A stretch of 64,000 nucleotides of DNA from a virus (IMGVR_UViG_3300027863_000020:86818-150817), one strand, 5' to 3'. Numbered from the stretch's first letter, positions 14,675-62,946 are shown. Notes: generated by a model not told the origin, from the sequence alone. Translations and numbers: made by a program.

Positions 14675-15350
14675 TGTTGGCCTCAACTTCTGTCTGGACA
14701 CGCTTCACCATCTCGCAGAATGCGCTATGGACTACACGGACATAGTACACCACAGACCGTTGGACAATGATGTCATCGGAAGAGCATTTTCTTGGAAGAT
14801 TGCCGAAGGCATATTGTATATACTCTTCTTCGCCATCTTCCGCAACCTTGAGACATTCCAGATAATAGCGATACAGTTCTTCATCACGGTCGGGGAGTTC
14901 CGCAATGACTTCATCGGCTACATTGGAGTAGTCGAATAGCTCAATCGGAACAAGGTCATCCGCTCCATCACACACTGTCGGAATCTGCCCGTTCTCTTCC
15001 AAGATACGGTACAGGGTTTCAATGATTTCCTGTTTGGTCGATTCGACACAAAACTCATGGGTCTTGTGCTCTCCACCCAAGCGAAGTTTCTCACAGAAGT
15101 ATTGGAGACAAATGCTGTCATCCGTCCTTGGGTCGAAATAACGGGAGGCGATCCAGTTTCCATAATCACCAGAAATCAGGCATAGCCCGTCAATGTTGCG
15201 GAAATGGACGGAGTGCATACGCTGTCCATTGACTGCCAATGACCACTTATTACCAAGTTTGGGGTCATCATTGACAATGAAAGTGAGTTGGTGGTTAGCC
15301 CACGATTTGCCATATTTTTCAAATTCTTTTTCAGTCATAGCGATTACCAT
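14667..15350 (-). CDS. hypothetical protein
   Basis: LISGDYGNWI..QYFCEKL, a pattern seen in phage hypotheticals. Confidence 0.65.
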   Translation of the reverse strand: MVIAMTEKEFEKYGKSWANHQLTFIVNDDPKLGNKWSLAVNGQRMHSVHFRNIDGLCLISGDYGNWIASRYFDPRTDDSICLQYFCEKLRLGGEHKTHEFCVESTKQEIIETLYRILEENGQIPTVCDGADDLVPIELFDYSNVADEVIAELPDRDEELYRYYLECLKVAEDGEEEYIQYAFGNLPRKCSSDDIIVQRSVVYYVRVVHSAFCEMVKRVQTEVEANNG

Positions 15351-21835: not shown

Positions 21836-22447
21836 ATGTCATCACTACCATACGGTCAAACAGTTGAACAGTTGTACAACGACCACAAAGGTCTCATCTA
21901 CAAGTACGCATACAAGCATCTCAAGAAGTGGTCTCGTTTGCGGACTATTTCGGAAGCACTGTCGGACGCATACACGATCTTTATGGAAAGCATCAAGAAT
22001 TTCGACCCTTCTGAATCCGCTCATGGAAATACGAAGTACGGATTCTACATTCACTTGCGGTCTCAATTGGAATGTGGCCTCAAGGGAGTAAGACGGGAGT
22101 ATTACAAGACGGCATCCAGAGAAGTTTCAGAATCCCGTCTCGATCCTCAATTGGCGACAAAGCTCTTCGGAGAAACCCTTATGAACTCCGACTATGGGCG
22201 CACTATCAAAGTTGCCGACTCAATCATGGACATCACGAAGATTCTTTCCGAATGCGAACTGGATGATCGGTACAGTACCGTGCTTCGCCACTATTATGGG
22301 CTAATTACCGAAGAGAAGGAAACGCTACGATCCACCGCTGAATTTGTCGGAATCAGTCACGAAAGAGTGCGACAAATCATCAATCAATCGGAAAAGAAAA
22401 TCCACACCCGCTTTCAATCCGACATCAATCTCTTTCATAATCTGTGA
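21836..22447 (+). CDS. RNA polymerase sigma70-family factor (regions 2 and 4)
   Basis: LIYKYAYK..DAYTIFMESIKNFDPS; LDDRYSTVLRHYYGL..TLRSTAEFVGISHERVRQI. Confidence 0.85.
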   Translation: MSSLPYGQTVEQLYNDHKGLIYKYAYKHLKKWSRLRTISEALSDAYTIFMESIKNFDPSESAHGNTKYGFYIHLRSQLECGLKGVRREYYKTASREVSESRLDPQLATKLFGETLMNSDYGRTIKVADSIMDITKILSECELDDRYSTVLRHYYGLITEEKETLRSTAEFVGISHERVRQIINQSEKKIHTRFQSDINLFHNL

Positions 22448-22475: not shown

Positions 22476-23132
22476 ATGACGAACGCAGATACCATACTCA
22501 ATACCACCGAAAAAGCGGTGACTGTCGCCAACAATCAGGGGATCGCCAACACGATCACCGTGATTGTTGTTGCCATAATCGCTATCTATTTCATCATACA
22601 AATGATTGGGAGTCGTAAGCAATGGAATAATGACTCTTCTTCATTGAAGACTATCCGTGATGATGTAGCAACGACAAAGAATGCAGTGGTGAAAATCCCA
22701 ACATATCATTGGGAAATAACCTCGATGTTGGATCAGATTCTTCAGAGGTATAGCGATCATTTCTCGGTGGAACAGTGCATTCTCATCGCCAATTCCGTAT
22801 TACAGGGAACGAAGTCTCGATTGGAATTGAAGGCAATCAAGATCATAATTGAGAACGACATTGAGAACAAATGGAATCGCATCGAAATAAAAGTTAGGGA
22901 AATCATCGGTTCGCACTGGCAAACCGATATGTCCCTCTTGGAGTCGTTCATTGTCCGTGATGGTAAACCAATATCCGACTACATCGACCAAGATGATGTA
23001 GAGGAATTGACCAAGTTTCTTCTCATCGCAATCCGTGAAAAATACTCTTTCTCCGATATTGATGAAGGACTGTCCAACATCTATCGGGAGATATTCGCTT
23101 CATTGACTACGAAGCTCAAGAAAGAGATTTAA
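22476..23132 (+). CDS. single N-terminal TM protein, putative holin
   Basis: 218 aa, one TM then soluble domain (T4 T-like topology); late motif inside a hairpin at 22454-22475. Confidence 0.45.
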   Translation: MTNADTILNTTEKAVTVANNQGIANTITVIVVAIIAIYFIIQMIGSRKQWNNDSSSLKTIRDDVATTKNAVVKIPTYHWEITSMLDQILQRYSDHFSVEQCILIANSVLQGTKSRLELKAIKIIIENDIENKWNRIEIKVREIIGSHWQTDMSLLESFIVRDGKPISDYIDQDDVEELTKFLLIAIREKYSFSDIDEGLSNIYREIFASLTTKLKKEI

Positions 23133-28265: not shown

Positions 28266-31200
28266 TCATTCAAGCATAATACTGAAATGACCCCTATATG
28301 TCGGAAGATTCCCAGTACCCACACCATCTTGTTCAAACATCTTCTGAATAATCCTCCAAGAAGACGGAAGCAATTTGATGAAATCGGGGAATCCTTCCAA
28401 TTGTGCCAGCGCATACGGAATATGACCAATCTTGATATAGAACGGGCCACCTTTGAATGCCATAGCAGTTCTGCTAGTCACGCTATTAGCACCTATCGCC
28501 AACAACGCAATACCAATAAACCGTTTTCCCATCCATCCATCGTTACCATACTCCAACAATTGAGAGTATTCGACAACCCTATTCCCATCGCTTGGTATGT
28601 TCGTCACCGAAAGCATTGCCATGTTGGTTTCTAGGTATTTCAAGTGTTGTGTGGAATTAACTATGGTGATAGACCCATCCTCACCATGCCCCCAATCAGG
28701 ATCGGGAACCATCACAGAACGATATGCTAAAATATCACCTTCCTTTACCGCACCAGTACGAGCCACGACAACGACTTCCTTGGTCATCAACACACGATCC
28801 CGTGGCGTTTGCATACCATGATCGTACACACCAATCGTATTAGGATCAATCGGAACTTGGCCTTCTTCCAATACTACCTTATACGGATCATTCCTAGTGA
28901 TGTTACCACCACCCCAATTATCCCATTCCGACTCAAAATGTAGGATACCCGTACCCACCTTGAATGCGGGATATTTTCCATCATAATCGGTTGCTCGTGA
29001 TGCGGATAAATTATTCAAAAACCCAAACGCAAATCCGTTTCTCCGTTCCGTATATTCACGGGATGCGTTATCTTCGGATGCGTATTCCCGCATCTTCTGA
29101 TAATTTCCATGCCCCGCACCAAATTCAAATAAGTTGTTGTTGCTCCCTTCATTGAGCATACCGAAAACAAATTGATCGGAACGACTAACCAATAGGTGCA
29201 TACCTTTGGCATGGATATTGTACTGTGGTTTATAAGAATTACCACCACTATCACGAATCATAATGTTGATGTCATATCCGAACAAGTCAGCATACATGAC
29301 ACCAGAAGTACCGACTGATCCATCAAGAAAATCCCTGCCCAAATACAGGTGAGAACCGAACAAACGAGTGAATGCGGTATGTCCAGATCGTCCGTCTGTC
29401 AACGACCCACCATTGAACATATTGAGATTTGCATTCAGATCGGTTCCATACCAAGAATCAAAAACGGATTCGTACCTACCATAACTCTCAACACCAGTCA
29501 ATTGACCAAGGATTCGTTCGTGATCTTTTTGGAAATTGAATCGTTCGTACACGATCGTTGCATTAACATCGGACTTCATGTACTTGGCACTAGGAACCGC
29601 CATTCTGTTTTGATCGAGATAGAGGTGACGATGTTTGTCACCAACAAACGAACTGCCATATGTATTCTGTACCGCAATATCAGAACCGACAAATACGGAT
29701 TCGTATAGATAACCACCACGCAACGAACCACGGCTTACCATCAAACTACCAGAAGCATCTTGAAATTCGCCGCTACCAATAGTTCCTATGCTAAAGGTGG
29801 ATGAATTATGGTTATTCGCACTGAAAATGATATTGTGAAGATATATACCATATGTATTAGTAACATATCCCTTAAAACCACGGCCTCCGAAATTAAGAAG
29901 GTAATCAACATTATCGTTGTCAATGAAGACAAATGCGGTTCCCCGCTGATAAAAATTAAAGCCATAATCATTACAATTATTCGGAACCGGAATTGTTGTA
30001 TTGCTGTCGATATTAGCGATTCGGAATCCAAAGAGACCACCACCGATATTCTTGACTTCCTTCACTTGGTACAATTCACCAACAAAAGACATCGAGCCTT
30101 TTAATTTCTCGACATCTGAAGGATTGTCGGTATCTACCCAATTTGTCAATTTCGTTACATACAAATACAACCGTCTTCCATTCACTGTGCGACTTGATGG
30201 ATTAAACGCCAAAGCAGTCGTTGTAATTGATGGAGATTGTGAGCTGTTCAATACGATATAATCCGCATTGGACGGATCATTTATCATAACAATCGGAGTA
30301 TTGCTAGAAGTCTGTTGAAGATGCGTCACCGTTCCAACATTACCAACCGAATAAGTATGTCCCGAATTACCATCGAATAATTTACCAATTAAGTTCCACT
30401 TTGCATAATACATCCAAGCGGTTCGCCAAATATCGGTCTTTTCATAAGTACCGTCAATTTGACGAATGGTATTCGTTGACGATGAACCGTCCCAGATATT
30501 ACCACCATAGGTACTTTCCAATACAGGATCGGTAGTCCCCGTCACGACATTGGAAGAATTCAACGTGTTCGTAGGACGAAGCATCCTACCATATACACCG
30601 TTCTTCTTAAAATGTTCATACAGAATAATGGAAGAGAATGTGTTGTTACTCATCGCATGATTACGAGATACCGAAAACCCAGACTGTGAATTATTGATAT
30701 AACTGTTCGTTTGTGCCGAAGTAAACCCACCAAGGGCATAATCCAAAGTAGATGTCTCCAACATGGTCAAATGGTTGTACGGTGCAGTACCAACATGACC
30801 ATCGGAACCAAGCAAGATACCCGCTTGTCGGTCATATGCGTTCCCACCGAATCCCATAGACAGATTCTTACCGAAGATGATATGTCTGGAAACGGGAGCC
30901 ATCTTAAGATTGATATGAGAGCCAAAAATCAACACATCGGTAAAGTCCGGGCCGTCTCCTGTCGATCCACTACCAAGACCACGCCCCAAGATTGAATTGT
31001 TGGCTCCTAGCATCCACACATTCATGTTGTTGTGATGTGTTTCCTTCCAATCTGTCAGCGGAGACCCCAATCCACCGATGGAGCTATAATCGGTTGTCGC
31101 CATTCGGAATTGGCGGTTCTGGTTCTTGTACCCGAACAGATAGCTTCCACGCTGATTCGAGTAATTGCAGTCACCGAAATTGATGGAGTTGTAGCCTTCC

Positions 31201-43360: not shown

Positions 43361-43375
43361 ACCCTTATTTATGGA

Positions 43376-50074: not shown

Positions 50075-50092
50075 TATTTAGTTGCATAAATA
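50075..50092. promoter_or_regulatory. back-to-back divergent late promoters
   Basis: CTAAATA (-) at 50075-50081 and ATAAATA (+) at 50086-50092. Confidence 0.7.
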
Positions 50093-50144
50093 AGAGTAGA
50101 AACCCTCAAAACGGGTACGAAACAACCAAAACACGGAGATACAC

Positions 50145-50720
50145 ATGACAAAGAGAAGCGTACTTGAAGAACAGGTTGCGTACCTGTTGGAAGAAGAAAC
50201 CGACATCGAGACCACCGACCACCCCGGTCGTTCTGGTGAAAACCACAAATACAATGCTTCTTTGAAGCGTCTGGAAGAATCCAAGAAGCGTCTGCTCAAA
50301 GCACAGGACGAACTTGGTGATGAAGAGCTTTCCGAAGAAGACGAAGCCATCAAGGGCAAGATCGGCAAGGCCGTTGATGCCATTGATGATGCCATGAAGT
50401 CCATCAAGGAAGAGTCGGATGACTCGGACGAAGATGACGAAAACGGTGACGAAGATGTTGCCGAAGAAGGCAAGGGCAAGAAGAAGCTCCACCAGAACCA
50501 GAAGGGCAAGAAGCTCCACCAGAACGAAGATGGTGACGAAGATGGTGATGGTGAAGACAAGGACAAGAAGGTTACCGAAGAAGGCAAGGGCAAGAAGAAG
50601 CTCCACCAGAACGAAGATGGTGAAGATGATCCCGAATTCGTCAATGAAGAAGACGATGACTCCGATGAAGATGACGAAGGCAAGAATGTCGAAGAAGAAG
50701 GCAAGGGCAAGAAGAAATAA
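50145..50720 (+). CDS. acidic/basic repeat protein with N-terminal LEEQ tag (putative head-internal protein)
   Basis: KRSVLEEQVAYLLEE; repeats of EEGKGKKKLHQNEDG; GGAG RBS; terminator follows. Confidence 0.75.
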   Translation: MTKRSVLEEQVAYLLEEETDIETTDHPGRSGENHKYNASLKRLEESKKRLLKAQDELGDEELSEEDEAIKGKIGKAVDAIDDAMKSIKEESDDSDEDDENGDEDVAEEGKGKKKLHQNQKGKKLHQNEDGDEDGDGEDKDKKVTEEGKGKKKLHQNEDGEDDPEFVNEEDDDSDEDDEGKNVEEEGKGKKK

Positions 50721-50741
50721 CCTTCGTGCCACACGATCCAT

Positions 50742-50770
50742 AAAGAGACCCCTAGCGATAGGGGTCTTTT
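50742..50770. terminator. bidirectional terminator
   Basis: AAAGAGACCCCTA-gcga-TAGGGGTCTTTT. Confidence 0.85.
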
Positions 50771-50922
50771 CATTTTCCGATCCGCTTGTTTCGTATTTGG
50801 ATTTCGAGAGCGTATGATCTGAAGTTCCTGATCGACCGAATCCGCTTCCGTCTGTAACGAACGATCAATACCATAACCACCGAAACGACACACACGATTG
50901 AATATGCGATTAGATTGAGCAT
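50770..50922 (-). CDS. 50-aa membrane peptide (absent from ORF track)
   Basis: MLNLIAYSIVCVVSVVMVLIVRYRRKRIR...; promoter at 50929-50957, terminator after. Confidence 0.6.
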   Translation of the reverse strand: MLNLIAYSIVCVVSVVMVLIVRYRRKRIRSIRNFRSYALEIQIRNKRIGK

Positions 50923-50928
50923 ATTGAA

Positions 50929-50957
50929 AATGTGGTATCTAACTCGAATGTTGTCAA
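50929..50957 (-). promoter_or_regulatory. class-2 promoter TTGACA-17-CACATT
   Basis: TTGACAACATTCGAGTTAGATACCACATT. Confidence 0.7.
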
Positions 50958-50958
50958 T

Positions 50959-51513
50959 CTAATAAAGTCTTCGAGCATCAATTCTCGAATACCAGAAGGT
51001 TGTCAATTTGAACGGCTTTCCACTGATAATATCGGTTCTGGTTCCCAAATCCACCCGCAATGCCTCTTCTTCCTTGAACATAGGAAGAACTGCATTGAGA
51101 TTGATTCGATTTTCCCCGACATAATGGTCTTCTACGATGGTCAAGTCAATCGAATCAAGGAATGGAAGGAACAGATTGAAGGTCTTTAGGCCACCAAGGA
51201 CATACAGGTTCTTGAATGGAGACCGACCGAACTCATCAAGGACATCGGTGACATTGGGGAGATAGAGCACATTGTCCCGTATTCCCTGTGTCACCTTTTC
51301 GGTCATAACGATATTGAAGCATTCTGGATATGTTTTCTTCCCACGGAGAAGGAATGCACCATACCCCATGACAACTACGCTATTCTTCGTCAATTCTAGG
51401 ATATGTTCCGACACACGGGAGAAGTCATACATCGGAATACCGCCTATGGAAAAATACCCATCCTTGTTCGTACAGAGAATGGCATGAATACCTTTACCAA
51501 TACCCCCCATCAT
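50959..51513 (-). CDS. degenerate dihydrofolate reductase-like protein
   Basis: LTKNSVVVMG, NIVMT, YVLGGLKTF..FLP..D.IDLTIV; ATGA-coupled to patatin. Confidence 0.7.
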   Translation of the reverse strand: MMGGIGKGIHAILCTNKDGYFSIGGIPMYDFSRVSEHILELTKNSVVVMGYGAFLLRGKKTYPECFNIVMTEKVTQGIRDNVLYLPNVTDVLDEFGRSPFKNLYVLGGLKTFNLFLPFLDSIDLTIVEDHYVGENRINLNAVLPMFKEEEALRVDLGTRTDIISGKPFKLTTFWYSRIDARRLY

Positions 51514-52343
51514 TTGTTGATCCAGTCCAAGATTTCTGTTTTGTTTGCCAGCCAGTGATTGTACCAAATCATCTCATAGGCATCCATTGAACTGATCGAA
51601 TCAAGGGCGTAGCCAGTGGTCAAATGGGGTTCGACACGGAAATATCGGTTCCCCATCAATCTGGACGCATAGAATCCAGTGACATCTTCGGTGCATTGAA
51701 GCTCGAATTTGATGATTCGGTTAGCCCATTGAAACATATTCAAGTTCTCGGAGATTTCTGAACCATGATAGAAGTCACCATTGGTTCCGATTGACAGAAC
51801 ACGAATCTGGGTAGGATCAACCTTGTTCTTGTCGGCATAACCCGCAACACCGACCAGAGCAGGGTTGTTCCCCCATAGGCCACCATCCGCAAAGCGATTC
51901 GCAACGGGAGGAAAGTAGGTTGGGGCGGCGGTGGATTGAAGTACGGCATCACGCACTAGGATGTCATCGGAGCGGTCATACACCTTGGGTTTTCCAATCT
52001 TGAAATCGGAAGTGGTGATGAATGTAGGGATGATGAGTTGCGACATCTTGGTATCGCCAAGGTACTTCTTGAGAATGGCCTTGAGATTTTCATTGTCGTA
52101 TTTCGGCTTCAGTGGATTGACTCTCCACATGAACGATGGCTTCTTGAAGATACCCGCACCTTCGGTCTTGAAGATGTTGTACACCTGATCCCACGACTTT
52201 CCCATGCCCCGCAAAGCCGCAATGATAGCCCCGACCGATGTACCCGCAACAAAGTCTTCGTTATTGTAATTGAGTTCCTTGAGGAACCGTGCCGATCCGA
52301 TTCCAAGGATTCCACCACCGTCAATCGTGATTCCAGTCCGCAT
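51510..52343 (-). CDS. patatin-like phospholipase (CapV-like architecture)
   Basis: IDGGGILG, AGTSVG, STAAPTYFP, FADGGLWGNNP, VLSIGT. Confidence 0.92.
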   Translation of the reverse strand: MRTGITIDGGGILGIGSARFLKELNYNNEDFVAGTSVGAIIAALRGMGKSWDQVYNIFKTEGAGIFKKPSFMWRVNPLKPKYDNENLKAILKKYLGDTKMSQLIIPTFITTSDFKIGKPKVYDRSDDILVRDAVLQSTAAPTYFPPVANRFADGGLWGNNPALVGVAGYADKNKVDPTQIRVLSIGTNGDFYHGSEISENLNMFQWANRIIKFELQCTEDVTGFYASRLMGNRYFRVEPHLTTGYALDSISSMDAYEMIWYNHWLANKTEILDWINK

Positions 52344-52348
52344 AAAAA

Positions 52349-52380
52349 CTCCTATGGTTTAATTACCCATAGGTATTTAT
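52349..52380 (-). promoter_or_regulatory. late promoter ATAAATA plus RBS-sequestering hairpin
   Basis: ATAAATA-CCTATGG-gtaattaaa-CCATAGG-AG-tttttATG. Confidence 0.7.
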
Positions 52381-52383
52381 GCG

Positions 52384-52878
52384 TCAATTTGTCGGAAGGG
52401 GTGGGCGAACCAGATTTCTCAATGTAGATGTGAAATTGCTAGTGATTTTCTTTCGCCTTCTGTTTGGCTTCGTTGGATTCGCTTTCCGATATTCAAGAAT
52501 GCGGTCAATCTTCTCATTCGTCAATTTCTTCGCTTCGACAACCAACGGAACAATATCGAGAACGATTCCTGTCTCATACCAGAAGTCGAATTGATAAAAG
52601 AAGTCATCCATAGGCTCGTATTCATAATCCCGTGGCTTGTAGTGATGAGCACCGTATAGGCAATAAAGCTCTCCATCAATTCCGAAATTGAACGGACGGA
52701 AATTGACTCTCCCGATTGACACGCCATTGTGTGATACGAAGATGCGACACCACCGACCACCATCCCAAGCAACGCCTTGACGGTTCAACTCGAACTTGTA
52801 TTTCGGGAATGCGGTACGAACCGCATTGACGAACTCGCCAATGTCGATTCCAGTTTTCTCTTTGTCTCTAAAGACCAT
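52384..52878 (-). CDS. hypothetical protein
   Basis: Tiling with neighbours. Confidence 0.6.
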   Translation of the reverse strand: MVFRDKEKTGIDIGEFVNAVRTAFPKYKFELNRQGVAWDGGRWCRIFVSHNGVSIGRVNFRPFNFGIDGELYCLYGAHHYKPRDYEYEPMDDFFYQFDFWYETGIVLDIVPLVVEAKKLTNEKIDRILEYRKANPTKPNRRRKKITSNFTSTLRNLVRPPLPTN

Positions 52879-54326: not shown

Positions 54327-54355
54327 AATATACTCAATGTATCTTGTATAGTCAA
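54327..54355 (-). promoter_or_regulatory. early-type promoter with ACAAGATACA box
   Basis: TTGACT-ATACAAGATACATTGAG-TATATT. Confidence 0.85.
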
Positions 54356-61080: not shown

Positions 61081-61376
61081 TCGGTCAGGATGTCATCGGT
61101 CGGGGCATCATCGTCAAAGATGAGCCGTGGGTCTGGCAACCGCAATTCGGTCGATTCATGCACGGGAACAGGGGAAGAAATTGACAGATCGAACTCAACG
61201 GCTAGGTCTGTCAATTCTTCCATATCGGGGATGACGGTTAGGTGGTCGGTGTCAATCTCATTTCCCACAAGATCGAACATAACCCCCTTACACGCCAAAA
61301 GGGGAGTAGGTGCTTCCACCACAAAAACCTGAATTCTGCTTTCGTAAAGATTGGCAACACCTACTGCATAGCGCAT
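61077..61376 (-). CDS. hypothetical protein
   Basis: Tiling with neighbours. Confidence 0.55.
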   Translation of the reverse strand: MRYAVGVANLYESRIQVFVVEAPTPLLACKGVMFDLVGNEIDTDHLTVIPDMEELTDLAVEFDLSISSPVPVHESTELRLPDPRLIFDDDAPTDDILTD

Positions 61377-61379
61377 AGT

Positions 61380-61574
61380 CTATAACCCTTTGATTTCCTT
61401 TTCCGACTTCTTCTTGTCCTGTACCTGTGAACGGATGGTCTGGGATGTCTTCCTGATTGACTGCATCAATTTCCGAAGACGGGTTCCCGCTGAAGCGTTC
61501 CCCTTGTTGAAGAACGCTTCGCCTTCCTTTTTCGCAGATTGGACAAGCCTTTCGAGTTCGTCCAAATGCTCCAT
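61380..61574 (-). CDS. Hc1-like (histone H1-like) small DNA-binding protein
   Basis: F..KGNASAGTRLRKLMQ.I.K....IR..VQ. Confidence 0.8.
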   Translation of the reverse strand: MEHLDELERLVQSAKKEGEAFFNKGNASAGTRLRKLMQSIRKTSQTIRSQVQDKKKSEKEIKGL

Positions 61575-61575
61575 G

Positions 61576-61947
61576 TTAAGCCTTGGCTCCAAAGGTGGCT
61601 TTCTTGGCCTTGGGAGCAACCTTCTTGACGGGCTTGGTCAGGACTGCGAGTTCCTTTTCCAGAGCCTTCAGAGCGGTCGCCTTGGTCTTCACGGTGGCCT
61701 TGGCATCGGCAATCTTGGTCTTGAGAGCCTTGGCATCATCCTTGGAGAGCTTGACCTTGGAAGGCTTGGAAAGGGCGACAACGGCCTTTTCAGCATCCTT
61801 CAGACCAGTCTTGGCAACCTTGATGGCTTCCTTCTTGGTCTGGATGGCTTGCTTTGCTTCGGCCTTCTGCTTGGCGAGAAGGGCTTTCTCTGCCTTCTTC
61901 TCTTCAGCGGTCTTGAAGCCATTGAGGGGGTTGGTGGACTTGGACAT
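61576..61947 (-). CDS. Lys/Ala-rich histone H1-like protein
   Basis: Strongly K/A-biased; GAGG RBS. Confidence 0.7.
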   Translation of the reverse strand: MSKSTNPLNGFKTAEEKKAEKALLAKQKAEAKQAIQTKKEAIKVAKTGLKDAEKAVVALSKPSKVKLSKDDAKALKTKIADAKATVKTKATALKALEKELAVLTKPVKKVAPKAKKATFGAKA

Positions 61948-61998
61948 GATGTACCTCTTTGTTTTTGGTTGTGGTTGTTCGCCTATTTGACTAGGGAA

Positions 61999-62946
61999 TT
62001 ACTTGTTTTCCATGTGGACGGAAATGAGATTGAGCACACAAGCACTGATAGTAATTTCTTGATCCAGTGAGCGGGTGGCTCGATCCATGTAATCATCCAG
62101 AATGATGATTGCTTGTGCTCTTGCCCCTTCGTTCAATTGAGGTACTAGCTCATCGAACATGGGGCGGTACAGGGTGGTCGGGTCGATTGACATTTCATTC
62201 ATCAAGATACGGAACTGCTTGTAGTTCCCGCCCATGATGCACTCCCACAATGGAGCATAATTGAACTCCACTTTGAGAATGGTCTTGTCAATCTTGCCAT
62301 ACATCGCATGGTATCGCTGAAGGGTCTGGTAAACCCTTCTGGTATCGGGGAACATACGCTCCACGAATTCGCCCACCACTGCGGGGTCATGCTCGACTTC
62401 TTCACGAACAAGAACCCTCGTAAAGAACTTGGTCAATTTCGGAACCATCTCTCCACGGTGTTCTGGATTGGTGAAAGAAAAGTCAAACTGTTCGCAACGG
62501 GAACGGAGGGGTTCGATGACCTTTTGCTCGTAGTTTGCGGTGAGGATGAAACGGCAATTGGACGCATACTTCTCGATGGCGGCACGGAGAGCCTTCTGTA
62601 ATTGAGGGCTTGCACCGTCCACCTCATCCATCAAGACAACCTTCAGACGGTTTCCGATAGCCTTGGTGATGGCAAACCCGTCAATCTGCTCATTGAGGGT
62701 GTCCTTACCAGAATCTTGGGACACATTGATGTAGAGCATTTCCGCATCAATGTCGGAACAGATAGCCTTGGCAATAGTAGTCTTTCCAGAACCGGGCTTC
62801 CTCGAATAAAGGAACAGGTTGGGAAGAGTTCGTTCGCCACGGACAATCTGCCCGAAGAACGAAGCGTATGCCGAAGGCAAGATCATCCTTTCGACTGAAG
62901 GACAACGATACTTCTCAAACCAAATGGCATCACGAATTTCTTGCAC
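61999..62946 (-). CDS. clamp loader large subunit (gp44, RFC-like AAA+)
   Basis: WFEKYR, PGSGKTT, MDEVDG, QKALR, CRFILTANY, PLRSRC. Confidence 0.95.
   Translation of the reverse strand: MQEIRDAIWFEKYRCPSVERMILPSAYASFFGQIVRGERTLPNLFLYSRKPGSGKTTIAKAICSDIDAEMLYINVSQDSGKDTLNEQIDGFAITKAIGNRLKVVLMDEVDGASPQLQKALRAAIEKYASNCRFILTANYEQKVIEPLRSRCEQFDFSFTNPEHRGEMVPKLTKFFTRVLVREEVEHDPAVVGEFVERMFPDTRRVYQTLQRYHAMYGKIDKTILKVEFNYAPLWECIMGGNYKQFRILMNEMSIDPTTLYRPMFDELVPQLNEGARAQAIIILDDYMDRATRSLDQEITISACVLNLISVHMENK

Follow-up and report, generated by a model that had tools for sequence, protein, structure and literature searches.

When does an uncultured T4-like phage make a patatin-type phospholipase whose gene lies about 2 kb inside an early operon, and what is the enzyme for? 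The question is raised by a patatin-like gene on the minus strand of IMGVR_UViG_3300027863_000020:86818-150817, a stretch of 64,000 nucleotides (hereafter, the window) at the right-hand end of one virus record, 150,817 bp long (GC content 47%; 100% complete by CheckV). The gene content of this genome is T4-like, with baseplate wedge proteins, a portal, a tail sheath, and a thymidylate synthase. A first-pass annotation of the window had described the gene as a late-only patatin with a locked ribosome-binding site and as a candidate lysis or entry module. Folding of the RNA around the patatin start predicted a two-helix hairpin that pairs a late-promoter-like word with the start codon and covers the Shine-Dalgarno (SD) sequence in read-through RNA, while RNA starting at the predicted late start site would expose both, a switch resembling that of T4 gene e.

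The hairpin over the patatin start

The hairpin comprises 15 bp in two stacked helices (Table 1). Its inner helix is the CCUAUGG/CCAUAGG stem of the first-pass annotation, which lies on the minus strand where it had been placed and covers the AGG of the SD sequence AGGAG. Stacked outside it in the minimum-free-energy structure from RNAfold is a second helix of 8 bp, which makes the structure stronger than had been claimed. The arms of this outer helix are CGCAUAAA (52383-52376) and UUUAUGCG (52346-52339); the latter contains the AUG, and the promoter word is in this way paired with the start codon, burying it. Compared with dinucleotide shuffles, a 56-nt fragment scored z = -5.8, and when the motif, the SD, and the ATG were held fixed, only 1 of 3000 shuffles folded as well. 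In read-through RNA, folded in a 211-nt context, the unpaired probability of the SD AGG and of the AUG was 0.00–0.03, and in RNA beginning at 52368 it was 0.77–0.84 for the AGG and 0.4–0.8 for the AUG. A late RNA would be unable to fold the hairpin because the putative late-promoter word itself forms the 5' arm. By analogy with T4 geometry (PMC3014915), late transcription would start near 52368, within the inner 5' arm and about 6 nt downstream of GCATAAATA. These folding models make it probable that the hairpin gates patatin translation, and the late-only expression that had been annotated would be consistent with such gating.

When T4 gene e was run through the script as a positive control, the published inhibitory hairpin was recovered, with an unpaired probability of 0.03 for the AUG. 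The logic of gene e, which the first-pass annotation had invoked, holds in silico for the patatin. Translational gating of gene e was reportedly described by McPheeters et al. in 1986. Gating has been shown experimentally for T4 e, soc, 49, and I-TevI (Uzan and Miller review, PMC3014915). As in gene e, the early read-through RNA is predicted to cover both the SD and the AUG with a helix, a putative late promoter of T4 type supplies the 5' arm, and the predicted accessibility switch matches. The layout is also shared, running from an upstream stop through (T/C)ATAAATA-CC..., the loop, ...AGGAG, and a U-rich spacer to an AUG in the 3' arm. The two systems differ in that the phage promoter word is GCATAAATA rather than TATAAATA, that the patatin has one promoter whereas gene e has two, that two stacked helices are present at the patatin, and that the gated gene encodes a phospholipase instead of a muramidase. 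In addition, the device is predicted at about 10 sites in the phage genome, compared with the four known in T4.

The promoter word belongs to a motif found chiefly a short way upstream of virion genes. Genome-wide, 6.4 copies of CATAAATA would be expected and 22 occur, whereas TATAAATA occurs twice; TAAATA overall is under-represented in the whole genome (52 versus 102 expected). At 37 sites, CATAAATA or CTAAATA stands in sense orientation at most 52 nt upstream of the start of an open reading frame (ORF), mostly at 3–45 nt. The ORFs behind the motif include those for the portal (with the variant GATAAATA), the tail sheath, a baseplate protein, a tail fibre, and an amidase. A late promoter of the T4 type would be distributed in this way. 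Outside the window, at 28884-28913 of the whole genome (G000), a perfect 13-bp inverted repeat, TTGCATAAATATG...CATATTTATGCAA, puts GCATAAATA on both strands and looks like a divergent late-promoter pair with one common hairpin.

Analysis of the late sites indicated that about 10 of the 37 carry promoter-straddling hairpins with z < -2.2. As a group, the late sites showed more structure than did 193 start regions used as controls (Mann-Whitney p = 0.005). Examples lie at G000 70692, 61163, 68756, 41627, 5705, and 21711 and at window positions 43373 and 22459. The AUG falls within the 3' arm at 9–10 of the 10 strongest sites. The arm sequences differ from site to site, which argues for structure and against a common protein-binding site. 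The set includes the Amidase_2 endolysin candidate, a 218-aa holin-like gene with a single transmembrane segment (window 22476-23132), and large late-region ORFs to which no function is assigned. The 6-bp ATAGGA/TCCTAT stem annotated at the tail-fibre gene exists and is not beyond chance (z = -0.66); it was rejected as a significant hairpin. If the models hold, gene e-type RNA gating would operate at about a quarter of the late promoters of this phage, far more broadly than in the four T4 cases. Because hairpins also stand at the large late ORFs of unknown function, gating by itself does not imply toxicity, and the first-pass statement that it does was too strong; in T4, soc and gene 49 are also under this kind of control (PMC3014915).

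An alternative that we regard as unlikely is that the hairpin is no on/off gate and serves as a weak terminator, as a 3' stabilizer of the early message, or as a coupling device melted by ribosomes that reach the end of the upstream ORF. The patatin would then be made with the early operon or be controlled by transcription alone. A ribosome terminating at the upstream stop codon, 1 nt short of the outer helix, would melt that helix; yet in T4 the nudE stop lies 4 nt before the gene e hairpin, and gene e is nevertheless repressed about 100-fold on early RNA (PMC3014915). AG and a run of five U come after the inner stem, an arrangement that could act as a weak terminator, but these U residues are base-paired within the outer helix, and the site was not flagged as terminator-like by a scan that excludes loops longer than 8 nt. 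Several of the hairpins that straddle a promoter are found within the late region, in which read-through from early genes is of no concern, and this counts in favour of the alternative; on the other side, a terminator has no reason to cover the AUG with its 3' arm, as the strongest sites do.

The patatin protein and its relation to CapV

The product of the patatin gene matched the Pfam Patatin profile at 1.3e-24 (87.9 bits against a cut-off of 27.7), and the profile scored 89.4 bits in a six-frame search of the genome. The translation contains the oxyanion residues G9-G10-G11, the nucleophile S36 in G34-T-S36-V-G38, and D153 in D153-G-G155. The GGG, GxSxG, and DGG columns are invariant across 25 homologues with 36–97% identity, in line with the annotation of the GGG, GTSVG, and DGG motifs as intact, and a catalytically dead sponge was rejected on the invariance of the catalytic dyad. 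These aligned homologues are metagenome sequences, four of which carry a source name, in each case "hypothetical protein", and the MRTG start of the phage patatin recurs in homologues. The AlphaFold (AF2) model has a predicted local distance difference test score of 92.7, and its best structural matches in the PDB are CapV (template-modelling score 0.84), CapE, and potato patatin; these three, iPLA2-beta, and PlpD were all matched at a Foldseek probability of 1.00. The family profile matched CapV chains at 5e-41. A signal peptide is absent, and the catalytic domain begins at residue 5. From the motifs and the modelled fold, the protein is very probably an active lipase, a catalytically competent, stand-alone patatin-type phospholipase A.

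Patatin relatives of at least 50% identity come from metagenome sources only (Logan, ENA, and JGI), among them P0004-P0010, which are 64–97% identical. A scan of GTDB genomes for closer relatives returned nothing above about 38% identity, and neither an IMG/VR search with P0001, P0007, P0015, and the family profile nor a scan of JGI metagenomes returned anything above 40%. P0011-P0015 (313–323 aa) form one branch of the family in which the N-terminus is extended by about 33 conserved residues; the phage patatin lacks this extension. The GC and GC3 (third codon position) contents of the gene are typical of the genome, and recent horizontal acquisition was rejected on this basis.

CapV of the CBASS (cyclic-oligonucleotide-based antiphage signalling system) defence and CapE are the best sequence and structure matches to the phage patatin (AbCapV 8zr9; 9kh6/9kh7). 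They share with it the patatin fold, the Ser-Asp dyad, a cytoplasmic location without a signal peptide, and the attack on membrane phospholipid (PMC12480259), features that for the phage patatin are predicted. In AbCapV, F147, K149, D159, and E207 bind cyclic GMP-AMP (cGAMP) and are needed for activity, and the residues for 3'3'-cGAMP include R279 and E328/T331/K332 (PMC12480259). Sequence alignment by phmmer to 8zr9, at about 24% identity, placed V121, D123, S125, and G168 of the phage protein at the first four positions. The phage protein ends before the C-terminal contact segment, which is missing; with 277 aa against 333–364 aa in the solved CapVs, it is 56–87 aa shorter at the C-terminus, and the annotated "CapV-like size" is therefore a loose description. 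No match to the SMODS cyclase profile PF18144 was found in the complete genome; the DncV-like profile PF21654 gave no match either, but its control search was also silent, so only the PF18144 result is informative. A cGAMP-gated CapV was rejected on the replaced contacts and the absent cyclase, and control by cyclic dinucleotides through the AbCapV mechanism is unlikely on the aligned residues. Judging from this comparison, the phage patatin is related to CapV and is not a CapV, lacking the cyclic-nucleotide switch and the partner cyclase. It further differs from CapV and CapE in being phage-encoded and predicted to be late-gated, and in forming a family of its own that is metagenome-only at 50% identity and above. 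It would thus be an example of the CapV-like effector fold on the phage side without the nucleotide-binding contacts of CapV.

The nearest solved and named relatives being the CBASS effectors CapV and CapE, and many patatins on viral contigs adjoining cGAS/DncV-like nucleotidyltransferases (CD-NTases), the protein might be a defence or conflict effector, an orphan CapV-like enzyme triggered by a nucleotide or a protein and acting in superinfection exclusion, in the killing of rival-bearing hosts, or in CBASS interference. We consider this quite improbable. The absence of a SMODS gene, the replacement of the four alignable cGAMP contacts, and the loss of the C-terminal segment all speak against it, the conserved catalytic residues show that the patatin is not a mere sponge, and the confinement of close relatives to metagenome sources also stands against such an effector.

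Lysis and other candidate roles

By the current view, a phage needs a holin, an endolysin, and either spanins or a disruptin to lyse a host with two membranes. An Amidase_2 protein is the only peptidoglycan hydrolase found in the genome, and from its domain it could be an endolysin or a virion-associated hydrolase. The profiles phrog_7, GH24, SLT, and Peptidase_M15_4 gave no match in the whole genome; phrog_315 gave none either, but its control search was silent too, so that result is uninformative. The first-pass annotation had seen no spanin pair in the window, and a heuristic scan for lipoboxes and transmembrane segments over the whole genome agreed, finding one lone lipoprotein and no pair, which is no proof of absence. 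With Amidase_2 as a candidate canonical endolysin and a holin-like gene already in the genome, the patatin would act beside them as an accessory to lysis and would not replace them. The lone lipoprotein (81 aa; G000 15071-15316, minus strand, outside the window) has a textbook lipoprotein signal, LFVSC, and no adjoining transmembrane partner; it is not an obvious spanin and, by its sequence, could be a receptor-blocking exclusion lipoprotein.

Lysis neighbours were compared at the five distinct loci closest to the patatin (36–40% identity). In L002, a GH24 endolysin overlaps the 3' end of the patatin gene, and in L064 an endolysin with GH108 and PG_binding_3 domains lies just upstream. The gene directly upstream of the patatin in L004 (3354-3890) encodes an N-terminal transmembrane segment, a proline linker, and a coiled coil, and is i-spanin-like or holin-like; a small lipoprotein with an LAAC lipobox is encoded just upstream in L001 (3776-3985). 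Because two of the five related loci put the patatin beside non-homologous endolysins, a lysis role is favoured, and the lysis half of the annotated "lysis or entry module" gains from these two relatives, while nothing supports the entry or virion half. A late lysis-accessory phospholipase is our best reading of the protein, and we hold it tentatively, as a possibility ahead of the others.

In the mechanism that we propose, RNA from the early promoter would fold the 15-bp two-helix hairpin, pairing the late-promoter word and its flank with the SD and AUG, and ribosomes would be blocked. Late in infection, transcription would start about 6 nt past GCATAAATA, inside the 5' arm, and the RNA would lack the hairpin and be translated. 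The patatin, having no signal peptide, would accumulate late in the cytoplasm, where it could attack host membrane phospholipid from inside or reach the envelope through holin lesions. Such an attack could help finish lysis in a phage without a detectable spanin pair. As a whole, a late-gated, stand-alone phospholipase that aids lysis is the explanation that fits best, a credible one that falls somewhat short of probable. It would offer a compact candidate of 277 aa with a recognizable timing lock like that of T4 lysozyme, and would make phospholipase-assisted lysis directly testable.

Besides the U run behind the inner stem, several findings weigh against this explanation. A homologue of T4 gp55 was not found by tblastn, and the only sigma-like gene (21836-22447) encodes a sigma-70 region 4. 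The patatin gene lies about 77 kb from the amidase, amid glycosyltransferase, DHFR-like, and unknown genes. The Mu-like locus L009 has no lysis neighbour, and the 94 neighbours of viral-contig patatins include 11 CBASS cyclases and one lysozyme. The predominance of CBASS cyclases in this wider set indicates that the lysis link is specific to the present subfamily.

For phage WO, a lytic cassette built around a patatin has been put forward (PMC9203015). In both cases a phage-borne patatin is proposed for lysis, and a small protein nearby has a single membrane helix at the N-terminus and a charged C-terminal end. Unlike the present phage, with its amidase candidate, WO is temperate, lacks an endolysin, and infects a host without detectable peptidoglycan. 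The phage patatin is only 26–29% identical to the WO patatins, the ankyrin partner of the WO cassette was not seen here, and the small membrane protein has a promoter to itself; the role in WO, too, is a proposal. The proposed role also recalls that of a second lipolytic enzyme. Mycobacteriophage LysB is a lipid esterase that acts on the outer lipid layer as a third lysis enzyme beside the endolysin and holin, which is the role proposed for the phage patatin; LysB differs in its unrelated cutinase-like fold, in its substrate, mycolyl-arabinogalactan, and in its location inside the lysis cassette. To our knowledge, a lipase step in lysis is established only for LysB. A broader proposal is that the patatin family is a new class of lysis proteins for hosts with a lipid outer barrier, kept under a gene e-type lock. 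The soluble enzyme would destroy envelope phospholipid late in infection and do the job of spanins, which the phage seems to lack, or else would trigger the holin through inner-membrane collapse; the hairpins shared by the patatin, amidase, and holin-like genes would then mark a co-timed lysis regulon. We regard this proposal as speculative and somewhat unlikely.

The patatin might instead be an auxiliary enzyme of lipid metabolism, releasing fatty acids or remodelling membranes late in infection. Its surroundings look metabolic, with a family 2 glycosyltransferase, the DHFR-like gene, and a thymidylate synthase gene 6 kb away. The start of the DHFR-like gene overlaps the patatin stop (ATGA), as had been annotated, and its own SD is weak; on this layout, the DHFR-like gene is translationally coupled to the patatin. 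However, a valine aligns at the catalytic-acid position of the solved DHFR 3ix9, in a gapped part of the alignment, and the DHFR-like partner may be catalytically degenerate. The two independent endolysin adjacencies in relatives and the gene e-type control device, as on the amidase and the holin-like gene, also speak against a metabolic role, which we judge improbable, slightly more so than that of a conflict effector. Least likely of all is that the patatin is packaged in the virion and opens the lipid barrier of the host envelope at entry: late expression would fit a virion protein, and the baseplate hub of T4-like phages bears enzymes that degrade the envelope, but the protein has no structural domain, signal, or targeting sequence, its catalytic domain begins at residue 5, the gene lies outside the structural module, and tail or baseplate genes are not beside the patatin in the loci examined.

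Operon context and neighbouring genes

The early sigma-70-type promoter upstream of the patatin carries the conserved spacer box of the phage and is followed by tightly packed genes. No terminator-like site was flagged between this promoter and 52343 in the scan that excludes loops longer than 8 nt, and early read-through into the patatin gene is plausible from the sequence. At the other end, the minus-strand transcription unit likely ends at a strong hairpin at 50766-50747.

Table 1. Coordinates of the patatin gene, its control elements, and neighbouring or related features (window positions unless marked G000)
Feature	Position	Strand	Remarks
Shine-Dalgarno AGGAG	52349..52353	-	followed by TTTTT and the ATG at 52343; 5 nt before ATG
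Inner helix, 7 bp	52351..52373	-	CCUAUGG 52373-52367, 9-nt loop, CCAUAGG 52357-52351; -9.3 kcal/mol folded alone
Full two-helix element, 45 nt	52339..52383	-	RNAfold, -18.1 kcal/mol
Late-promoter-like motif GCATAAATA	52382-52374	-	full match, 30 nt before patatin ATG
Patatin-like phospholipase coding sequence, 277 aa (P0001)	51510..52343	-	Pfam PF01734, motifs, predicted fold
Upstream ORF, 164 aa (P0003), no family	52384..52878	-	stop codon 52386-52384, 1 nt before outer helix
Early sigma-70-type promoter TTGACT-17-TATATT with TACAAGATAC spacer box	54327..54355	-	heads operon into patatin
DHFR-like gene, 184 aa	50959..51513	-	Pfam DHFR_1 4.5e-9; PDB 3ix9 1e-9
50-aa protein, N-terminal membrane helix, very basic C-terminus	50770..50922	-	own TTGACA-17-CACATT promoter
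Terminator hairpin GACCCCTA-TCGC-TAGGGGTC, then UCUUUAU	50747..50766	-	read directly
Amidase_2 protein, 341 aa	G000 61176-62201 (L148:1176-2201), outside window		CTAAATA 5 nt from ATG, GCATAC/GTATGC hairpin

Searches of GenBank with the region (blastn) and with the gp6-like baseplate protein (tblastn) found no matching phage, because the proteins are so diverged. Patatin matches in phages were limited to Wolbachia WO phages and two huge uncultured phages (26–33% identity). In a synteny comparison, none of the nine proteins neighbouring the patatin recurred in 143 related loci. A contig of 2259 bp is listed for a 51%-identical homologue of the DHFR-like protein (P0125) as well as for a patatin of 67% identity (P0007), which suggests that the pair of patatin and DHFR-like genes is conserved in a relative.

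Two further observations concern the end of the transcription unit. The promoter of the 50-aa ORF lies exactly 6 nt before its ATG, a leaderless geometry (window 50770-50957). An ORF at 50078-50773 on the minus strand was rejected as a gene, being a serine-rich, low-complexity antisense of the plus-strand gene at 50145-50720, and this plus-strand gene has its own GCATAAATA at 50085.

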